Positions 63,031 to 63,714 of a stretch of DNA of 64,000 nucleotides are shown here, piece by piece (position 1 is the stretch's first letter; every line of letters starts with the position of its first letter). The stretch lies in the IMG/VR virus record IMGVR_UViG_3300013101_001415; one strand, given 5' to 3'. Under the pieces are notes generated by a model that worked only from the letters and a program-made list of their open reading frames with translations, had not been told where the DNA came from and did no database searches. This DNA is from a virus. The translations under genes and the position numbers were made by a program.

Positions 63031-63293
63031 TGAATCTTGAAGATGTAGCAGATAATATTAAAAGATATGATGACGTTTTAACTATGTTTGAATTTAAAGA
63101 AAAAGGTGATGGAATTAAACCTTGGTCTATTAGACATGAGAATAAAAAAGGACAAGTTATTGAAGTTAGGATGAGTGATTGGACTTTGTATGAAAAAGAA
63201 AAAGAAACTGTTGGAAAAAACCCAAATGGATTAAAAAGATATTTATTAAAACAATTATCAAAAGATGAATTAATAAATTTAATATTGTGGTAA
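63030..63293 (+). CDS. hypothetical protein; its last 24 codons plus RBS are duplicated downstream
   Basis: 87 aa ORF; 3' end forms copy 1 of a 78-bp direct repeat. Confidence 0.45.
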   Translation: MNLEDVADNIKRYDDVLTMFEFKEKGDGIKPWSIRHENKKGQVIEVRMSDWTLYEKEKETVGKNPNGLKRYLLKQLSKDELINLILW

Positions 63294-63299
63294 GGAGAT
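63222..63299 (+). repeat. 78-bp direct repeat, copy 1 (gene 3' end plus GGTAAGGAGAT RBS)
   Basis: about 93% identical to 63637-63714. Confidence 0.8.
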
Positions 63300-63351
63300 T
63301 ATATGGGATCTATGAATGATATTATTAAATTTGATTAAGGGAGAATTACTA

Positions 63352-63621
63352 ATGGAATATGGTAAAAAATTTATTGAACATATGAATCGATATAATCTTA
63401 AACCAATATCTTTTCTTGAAGAGTTGTCAACACCAAGATTATTGGCATATTTTAAAAAACATCGTAAACTTAGACACGTTGGTATGTGTGATGGTGATTG
63501 TGGAGAACCAATGTCTTCTATTTTTGATCTTGATCTTGATAGTAAAAAATATTTTGATAATTGTATTGAATATGTTGATGCAATTAAATCTATACTGGAT
63601 AAAAGGGAACATGTAAAATGA
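63352..63621 (+). CDS. small Cys-containing protein between the direct repeats
   Basis: GMCDGDCGEP motif; start taken at MEYGKK after GGGAG (ORF track begins 63316). Confidence 0.4.
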   Translation: MEYGKKFIEHMNRYNLKPISFLEELSTPRLLAYFKKHRKLRHVGMCDGDCGEPMSSIFDLDLDSKKYFDNCIEYVDAIKSILDKREHVK

Positions 63622-63636
63622 TCTTATTTAAAAAAT

Positions 63637-63714
63637 CCAAATGGATTAAAAAGATATTTATTAAAACAATTATCAAAAGATGAATTAATTAATCTGATAA
63701 TGTGGTAAGGAGAT
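63637..63714 (+). repeat. 78-bp direct repeat, copy 2
   Basis: matches copy 1; read in the frame of the upstream ORF (past its TGA) it re-encodes PNGLKRYLLKQLSKDELINLIMW. Confidence 0.8.

Follow-up and report, generated by a model that had tools for sequence, protein, structure and literature searches.

Phage mosaicism is reportedly a product of illegitimate recombination, and the model of Hendrix, Juhala and Pedulla is said to account in this way for mosaic genomes and for the extra genes called morons. In a classic moron, the extra gene comes with a promoter and a terminator of its own. Known transposons and insertion sequences (IS) leave target-site duplications of typically ~2-14 bp, and programmed stop-codon read-through can append an extension to a protein, as in the A1 protein of Qbeta. 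In T4-type phages, PeSL elements have been described in connection with modular shuffling and mini-circles (Arbiol et al. 2010, PMC2839356; Comeau et al. 2014, PMC4122927). PeSLs form a dispersed, multi-copy family, and they comprise a sigma-70-like early promoter and a stem-loop terminator.

The DNA analyzed here (the window) is the whole 64,000-nt stretch of a viral sequence. All of its long ORFs lie on the + strand, its GC content is ~27%, and by exact-protein look-up it is found on contigs that reach 247-270 kb; its PHROG matches and the location of the genes on one strand suggest a large phage. Near the end of the window, a small gene (B) lies between gene A and gene C, and the end of gene A is found on both sides of it. 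We assign a probability of about 0.8 to the reading that a single gene insertion produced this arrangement, with a segment from another phage locus pasted between A and C and the target duplicated. The case is ordinary in kind, and it is a new, well-resolved example of phage gene shuffling.

Several features of the locus resemble PeSL. A small ORFan, located in the hyperplastic region of a large phage of lytic type, is flanked by direct repeats of ~100 nt that include the Shine-Dalgarno/ATG region; relatives with a single repeat lack the ORFan (A-B-tail2-C in the window vs. A-C in loci L032, L033, and L028); and repeat-based excision and re-integration are topologically possible. Unlike PeSL, however, the repeat in the window consists of the coding 3' end of the neighboring gene plus a ribosome-binding site (RBS), it has two copies in 64 kb, and it would have been made by the insertion itself. 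A promoter scan of 62300-64000, based on consensus sequences that may not fit the host's promoter type, identified 6 sites where 12.8 were expected and none inside either repeat copy. We found no terminator-like site in the same interval; by eye, copy 2 contains a weak 5-bp AAUCC/GGAUU hairpin. Identity with PeSL was rejected because promoter, terminator, and dispersed family were all missing.

As in the mosaicism and moron model, the extra gene separates two genes that adjoin each other in relatives, the joints fall at gene boundaries with little or no homology, and pieces of the donor's neighboring genes appear to have travelled with the insert. The term moron, used in an earlier reading of the sequence alone, fits the position of the gene, but the consensus scan detected neither a promoter nor a terminator of the cassette's own, unlike in classic morons. 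To our knowledge, a 90-nt target duplication is not usual in described moron junctions. The locus shares with transposon and IS insertions a target that is directly duplicated on both sides of the insert; in contrast to them, the duplication spans 90 nt and the insert carries fragments of former neighbors. We rejected a transposon or IS insertion because the insert has no terminal inverted repeats and encodes only the 89-aa B, with no transposase-sized ORF.

Based on direct reading of the window sequence, the direct repeat is real: its two copies (Table 1) are identical at 83 of 90 positions, and they start 415 nt apart, in agreement with the sequence-only reading (~415 bp). Over the 78 nt delimited in that reading (63222-63299 vs. 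63637-63714), identity is 74/78; over 84 nt, from an A-run to GGAGAT, it is 79/84. The exact 53-nt core of the repeat has two occurrences in the window and was not seen in any of 100 shuffles. With up to three mismatches allowed, there are 2 copies in 64 kb, and a search of the whole window for repeats revealed no further members of the tail/RBS repeat. The end of gene A reads ...GKNPNGLKRYLLKQLSKDELINLILW and stop, followed by GGAGAT, a 3-nt spacer, and ATG; each copy contains the last 25 codons of A (K63-W87, the "tail"), the stop, the GGAGAT ribosome-binding site, and the ATG. The sequence-only reading had recognized the recurrence of the tail and its RBS; however, it counted 24 codons and ended the repeat at the RBS, whereas the repeat runs on through the start codon of the downstream gene. 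At 63303, the duplicated ATG opens a relic ORF of 11 codons. In the 30 nt before 63216, the copies are identical at 14 positions against a background of 9.1 +/- 2.6; this marginal excess can be attributed to A-rich composition, and we dropped an upstream extension of the repeat beyond 63216.

The continuation past the TGA of B is likewise in frame, as had been noticed. Translated in the frame of B, 63316-63717 reads ...KREHVK-stop-SYLKNPNGLKRYLLKQLSKDELINLIMW-stop, and the peptide of copy 2 differs from the tail of A by one residue (M for L). Because any copy of this segment is necessarily open in the frame of A and has a 1 in 3 chance of falling in that of B, the in-frame relation is insignificant alone.

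Table 1. Coordinates of features at and upstream of the A/C boundary in the window
Feature	Coordinates	Strand	Description
SbcD-like gene	58688-59683	+	Upstream neighbor
SbcC-like gene	60173-62377	+	Upstream neighbor; followed by a 64-aa ORF
CreA-family gene	62587-63030	+	CreA-family protein (PF05981), secreted; hydrophobic N-terminus resembles a signal peptide
Gene A	63030-63293	+	87 aa; from the ORF list; last 25 codons form the tail
Repeat copy 1	63216-63305	+	A codons 63-87, TAA, GGAGAT, 3-nt spacer, ATG (duplicated start codon of C)
Relic 11-codon ORF	63303-63338	+	Duplicated ATG of C, 18-nt filler (63306-63323), last codons and stop of g61 (...KFD, stop)
Putative imported cassette	63324-63636	+	3' end of g61, RBS, gene B, first six codons of g241
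Gene B	63352-63621	+	89 aa; from the ORF list; small phage protein family
Probable relic of g241 start	63618-63683	+	ATG overlaps the TGA of B (ATGA); six codons homologous to g241
TGA stop of B	63619-63621	+	One codon downstream of the TAA in L015; replaces TGG there
Repeat copy 2	63631-63720	+	Apparent relic of the A tail, lacking its own start codon; then gene C's native RBS and ATG
Gene C, 5' part	63718-64000	+	Full gene of 203 aa in L001 (8689-9300), followed by a radical-SAM gene

Two other repeats were observed elsewhere in the window. A 134-nt direct repeat with 80% identity occurs at 13322-13455 and, 28 kb away, at 41318-41451; it spans the RBS and ~45 initial codons (..NYLxGLxEGKIWDKVKKVWRDHKGKI..) of ORFs 13333-13743 and 41305-42060, whose products are basic proteins that differ from each other over the rest of their length. 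A 37-nt motif at 45096-45132 and 47938-47974, CCATATTCTC(T/C)TTC-TAATAGAAT-G(G/A)AGGAG(G/A)ATATGG, has a stem of ~14 bp and brackets an 849-aa gene (45372-47921), with a weaker third copy near 49986; it may be a regulatory or terminator-like hairpin. The 849-aa gene also contains an 18-nt tandem repeat at 45834-45905 that encodes (EIPKGD)x3.

Gene A is conserved beside SbcC, CreA, and C within this phage group. We identified eight homologues (63-79% identity), and A matched no Pfam family and no PHROG family. AlphaFold predicted a helix, five strands, and two C-terminal helices (residues 65-74 and 78-86; pLDDT 88.8), and a Foldseek search of this model against the PDB returned no significant match (best E = 0.55). 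According to the model, the duplicated tail corresponds to two helices of A's own fold and would be a fragment rather than a known portable or autonomous module. That A and B are paralogues was rejected, as they have no N-terminal similarity and belong to different families and donor contexts. Gene C has only weak PHROG matches; on the longer contigs identified by exact-protein look-up, the 203-aa C is followed by the radical-SAM gene.

Searches for related loci gave results that differed by database. A blastn search in distant mode with 61800-64000 against 50,697 deposited phages returned no match, and IMG/VR protein-pattern scans with A and with B found no relatives. In L032 and L033, the gene order is SbcC-A-C-rSAM with a single tail and no B, and L028 and L029 have the same order, also with a single tail. 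The A-to-C junction of L017, L032, and L033 (TGGTAAGGAGATAAAATGAAAAG) is the same as the junction between copy 2 and C in the window. Judged from these sequences, the A-C locus of L032 and L033 represents the empty site. These two loci were drawn from the same JGI sample series as some of the contigs of the window type, and the closest empty sites are 84-87% identical to the window in A. The sequence-only reading had proposed comparing relatives for the presence of the segment 63300-63636; it is absent from them, and in L028, L029, L032, and L033 A is directly followed by C. That reading would have been contradicted by relatives with the same arrangement and diverged, non-repeated sequence, and what we observed is the opposite, namely relatives without the segment. 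An IMG/VR scan for the junction lacking B gave no match, and 9 contigs included no variant of the window's strain that lacks B.

Between SbcC and the radical-SAM gene, the loci (window included) display six arrangements: SbcC-A-C-rSAM (L028, L029, L032, L033); A-CreA-C (L012-14, with L031 showing A-CreA only, as the contig ends in CreA); A, a 32-codon hydrophobic ORF, and C (L030); A-g165-CreA (L018-21); a fusion of C codons 1-33 with A codons 35-87 that precedes full C (L017); and CreA-A-B-tail2-C (window). The duplicated tail is found only in the window. Taken together, these gene orders show that the A-C junction is a recurrent hot-spot of insertion and rearrangement.

Some of these loci show further features of their own. 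The position of CreA relative to A varies, as it lies before A in the window and after A in L012-14, L031, and L018-21. L017 (positions 1-692; ena:ERZ27227318:k141_1182782) carries a second, independent rearrangement at the A/C boundary: codons 1-34 of A are replaced by codons 1-33 of C, which gives a chimeric 85-aa ORF (P0009) followed by full C. The chimera yields a ~100-nt direct repeat of the 5' end of C, with the joint ...AAAGATGA/AAATAAAAAAGG (here and below, slashes mark joints). C (203 aa) has its first 18 residues (MKRKSDFITNSSST.Y.V) in common with g165, the 165-aa gene located after A in L018-21, and the two then diverge; the corresponding coordinates are 63718-63771 in the window, 1834-1887 in L018, and 468-521 in L019. 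Over these residues, g165 is identical to the window's C at 16 of 18 (89%), and the genes are otherwise unrelated. The common N-terminus seems to reflect a shared N-terminal module or a further recombination joint.

Gene B has a weak match to PHROG 9405 and belongs to a family with the motifs TPRLLAYFKKHR, CxCGCGE, and ILDKREHV. Among 5.8 billion clustered proteins, its sole close relative is P0011 (88 aa, 91% identical). In L015 and L016, P0011 is flanked by a 61-aa ORF (g61) on one side and a 241-aa gene (g241) on the other, in a neighborhood unrelated to that of the window, and the ATG of g241 overlaps the stop of the B homologue (TAATGG). Using blastn, we aligned the cassette to L015 326-634 with 91.7% identity over 313 nt. 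This match includes the end of g61 (...AAATTTGATTAA in the window and ...AACTTTGATTAG in L015) and the first six codons of g241 (ATGATCTTATTTAAAAAAT in the window and ATGGGCTTATATAAAAAAT in L015). A donor with >99% identity to the cassette was not found.

The window phage has a g61-g241 slot of its own, elsewhere in the genome or on a different contig of it (L022-24), and this slot holds an unrelated Cys-rich 97-aa gene. Because B is absent from this slot and its homologue is present in the slot of L015 and L016, B occupies different slots in different genomes. B would thus have arrived at the A/C boundary carrying pieces of its former neighbors. In L022 (positions 3528-4717, of the window's genome type), the 97-aa gene in the orthologous slot is also proline-rich, where L015 and L016 hold the B homologue; in L025-27, the g241 orthologue is preceded by a 530-aa Laminin_G_3 protein.

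The end of B differs between the two loci, reading GTA TAA TGG GCT in L015 and GTA AAA TGA TCT in the window alignment. Based on this comparison, the TGA of B is most probably a relic of the inherited start/stop overlap with g241 (ATGA), with the stop shifted by one codon. The relic ORF that starts in this overlap has 21 codons; past the g241 part, it crosses the tail copy out of frame and then terminates. In this genome, TGA serves as a normal stop; it ends 15 of the 87 ORFs of the window, many of them as ATGA overlaps. A genome with recoded TGA (code 4) was rejected, as long ORFs are intact under table 11 and TGA terminates these 15 ORFs.

At the right joint, the donor reads ...TTATATAAAAAAT/TTAAAG, the recipient (empty site) ...GTTGGAAAAAAT/CCAAATGG, and the window ...TTATTTAAAAAAT/CCAAATGG. 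The joint lies inside a 7-nt microhomology, AAAAAAT, which is present at the start of g241 and at codons 62-64 of A. At the left joint, the recipient reads ...GGAGATAAAATG/AAAAG and the window ...GGAGATTATATG/GGATCTATGAATGATATT/ATTAAATTTGATTAAGGGAG..., in the order duplicated ATG of C, 18-nt filler, and donor sequence. The sequence-only reading had suggested a cassette insertion or swap, and an empty site, a donor site, and joints at nucleotide level were all recovered. It had also suggested recombination between short homologies. This is borne out by the 7 nt at the right joint but not by the 78-90-nt repeat, which is a product of the insertion, that is, a target duplication. The occupied, empty, and donor sites and their joints can be read from the sequences themselves, whereas the enzymology is what we infer from them.

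An insertion of the following kind would account for the structure. The ancestral order would have been A, its stop and RBS, and then C. A 313-nt segment would have been copied from the g61-B-g241 locus of a related phage and joined into the A/C boundary by illegitimate recombination, such that the recipient sequence was left just after the ATG of C and re-entered 90 nt upstream; those 90 nt would then flank the insert on both sides. Gene A would stay intact, and C would keep its native ribosome-binding context. B would be translated from its own imported RBS and stop at the TGA inherited from the g241 overlap, and the second copy of the tail would be an untranslated relic. Candidate routes may include a template switch during replication, the breaking and joining of co-infecting genomes at two points, or a circular intermediate that integrated.

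The substitutions that separate the two copies were polarized with eight outgroup loci. Both copies in the window have TAT (Tyr) where the outgroups, except L030, have CAT, CAC, or CAA; as TAT is common to both copies, the duplication is recent and occurred within the window lineage. Copy 1 changed by ATG>TTG (Met>Leu) and AAT>AAC. The changes in copy 2, ATA>ATT and TTA>CTG, involve three nucleotides and are all silent in the frame of the tail, an outcome with a neutral probability of ~0.005-0.017 if counted as three events and 0.03-0.07 if counted as two. A pure relic does not predict silent-only changes, and we count them against the insertion; the 18-nt filler at the left joint, the lack of a close donor, and the lack of an empty site from the same strain are also counted against it. 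Under random placement, an exact run of at least 53 nt has a probability of ~0.005, calculated for 8 differences over 91 nt. The best explanation for both the exact core and the silent-only changes is a later crossover with a diverged functional A-C allele: homologous exchange inside the identical core of the tail would have brought in sequence, to the right of the core, that evolved in an intact A. We found no functional A allele with ATT...CTG, which leaves read-through a small residual probability.

The alternative that survives best, although we consider it unlikely, is that B is a mobile cassette for which the 90-nt tail/RBS serves as portable homology. B with one repeat would excise as a 415-bp circle and re-integrate by a single crossover into the tail of any A homologue, regenerating the direct repeats; the structure in the window would then have arrived by such an integration and not formed in place. 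Single-crossover integration of a circle gives exactly the topology of the window, and it also accounts for the exact 53-nt core as the crossover zone, with the differences clustered on one side (P ~0.005), and for the silent-only copy 2 as the native end of the recipient's A. The cycle would parallel the PeSL mini-circles of T4-type phages, with precedent in RB49 and phi1, where repeats flank ORFans and mini-circles were described (PMC2839356). Nevertheless, the first such cassette would still need the same two illegitimate joints, so that mobility supplements the insertion rather than replacing it. Moreover, B with a flanking tail occurs in one genome type only, and L015, L016, and the relatives of B that we read are without the tail; no variant of the strain without B appears among the 9 contigs, and circles are invisible in assemblies.

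Far less probable is a programmed or selected leaky read-through, in which some ribosomes would decode the TGA of B (e.g., by tRNA-Trp) and produce a 118-aa fusion of B with the two C-terminal helices of A. Of the stop codons, UGA is generally the leakiest. As in known read-through systems, the locus has an open extension in frame after the UGA; in addition, the three substitutions specific to copy 2 are all silent, and the TGA stands where L015 has TGG. In contrast to such systems, the extension is absent from the relatives of B examined, it is a recent copy of the end of a neighboring gene, and we found no clear stimulatory context. In the closest homologue of B, a TAA ends the gene one codon sooner, and the tail is missing. 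A sensitive search identified 44 representatives of the B family, most of which align residue 88 of B at or near their own C-terminus; the 14 that we read end in ...REHV plus 0-3 residues or in unrelated basic extensions, and the A tail is absent from all 14.

The TGA of B is followed by T, a base found after 7 of the window's 15 TGA stops, and U at +4 is a strong termination context in E. coli. An Rfam search at E up to 1 returned two sub-threshold chance matches only, and no SECIS family matched downstream of the UGA at the same threshold; selenocysteine recoding was rejected on this basis. The predicted RNA structure of 63530-63725 is modest (z = -2.2) and not compelling. A 17/19 complementarity between the 3' part of B (63549-67) and the tail (63663-81) was taken as chance, since this stretch of B is identical in L015. 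Also rejected was a frameshift from the relic ORF at 63618 into the frame of the tail, which needs a +1 shift and for which no suitable signal is present. The 1 in 3 chance of an in-frame copy, the tail's place as two helices after a beta-sheet in the predicted fold of A, and recombination with a diverged functional A allele as the simpler source of the silent changes likewise argue against read-through. The suggestion of a programmed read-through that appends a shared C-terminal module is therefore not upheld, given that the tail is absent from relatives of B and the TGA is probably an inherited overlap. There is only a slight chance of a minor B-tail fusion through a leaky UGA, perhaps with tRNA-Trp inserted at a codon that is TGG in the donor, in which case selection would explain the silent-only substitutions; if true, a double-stranded-DNA phage would have converted a recombination scar into a read-through extension.

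Finally, repeats can mislead assemblers and one contig (L007) has a scaffold N gap inside B, but an assembly or scaffolding artefact at the short repeat, which the sequence-only reading had advised checking, has a negligible probability, as 8 contigs from independent NCBI, ENA, and JGI assemblies of different samples agree fully in the A-to-C sequence, the copies are distinguishable by 7 differing positions, and the k141 tag in the ENA record names, if it denotes a 141-nt k-mer, implies a length greater than that of the 90-nt repeat. These eight contigs represent one strain and are uninformative on evolution.

With insertion at the A/C boundary as the preferred reading, the locus is informative in several respects. 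Single events that form mosaics are rarely caught with all three reference points, and here the empty, donor, and occupied sites are available with joints resolved to the nucleotide. At the right joint, 7 nt of homology would have sufficed, and fragments of both of the donor's neighboring genes appear to have been carried along. The 90-nt target duplication leaves the upstream gene intact and the ribosome-binding site of the downstream gene unchanged. For annotation, the locus advises caution, as an in-frame open stretch past a stop codon can stem from a duplication and is, alone, no sign of recoding. Within this uncultivated group of large phages, the A/C boundary, beside genes for SbcCD-like nucleases, is a recurrent hot-spot.
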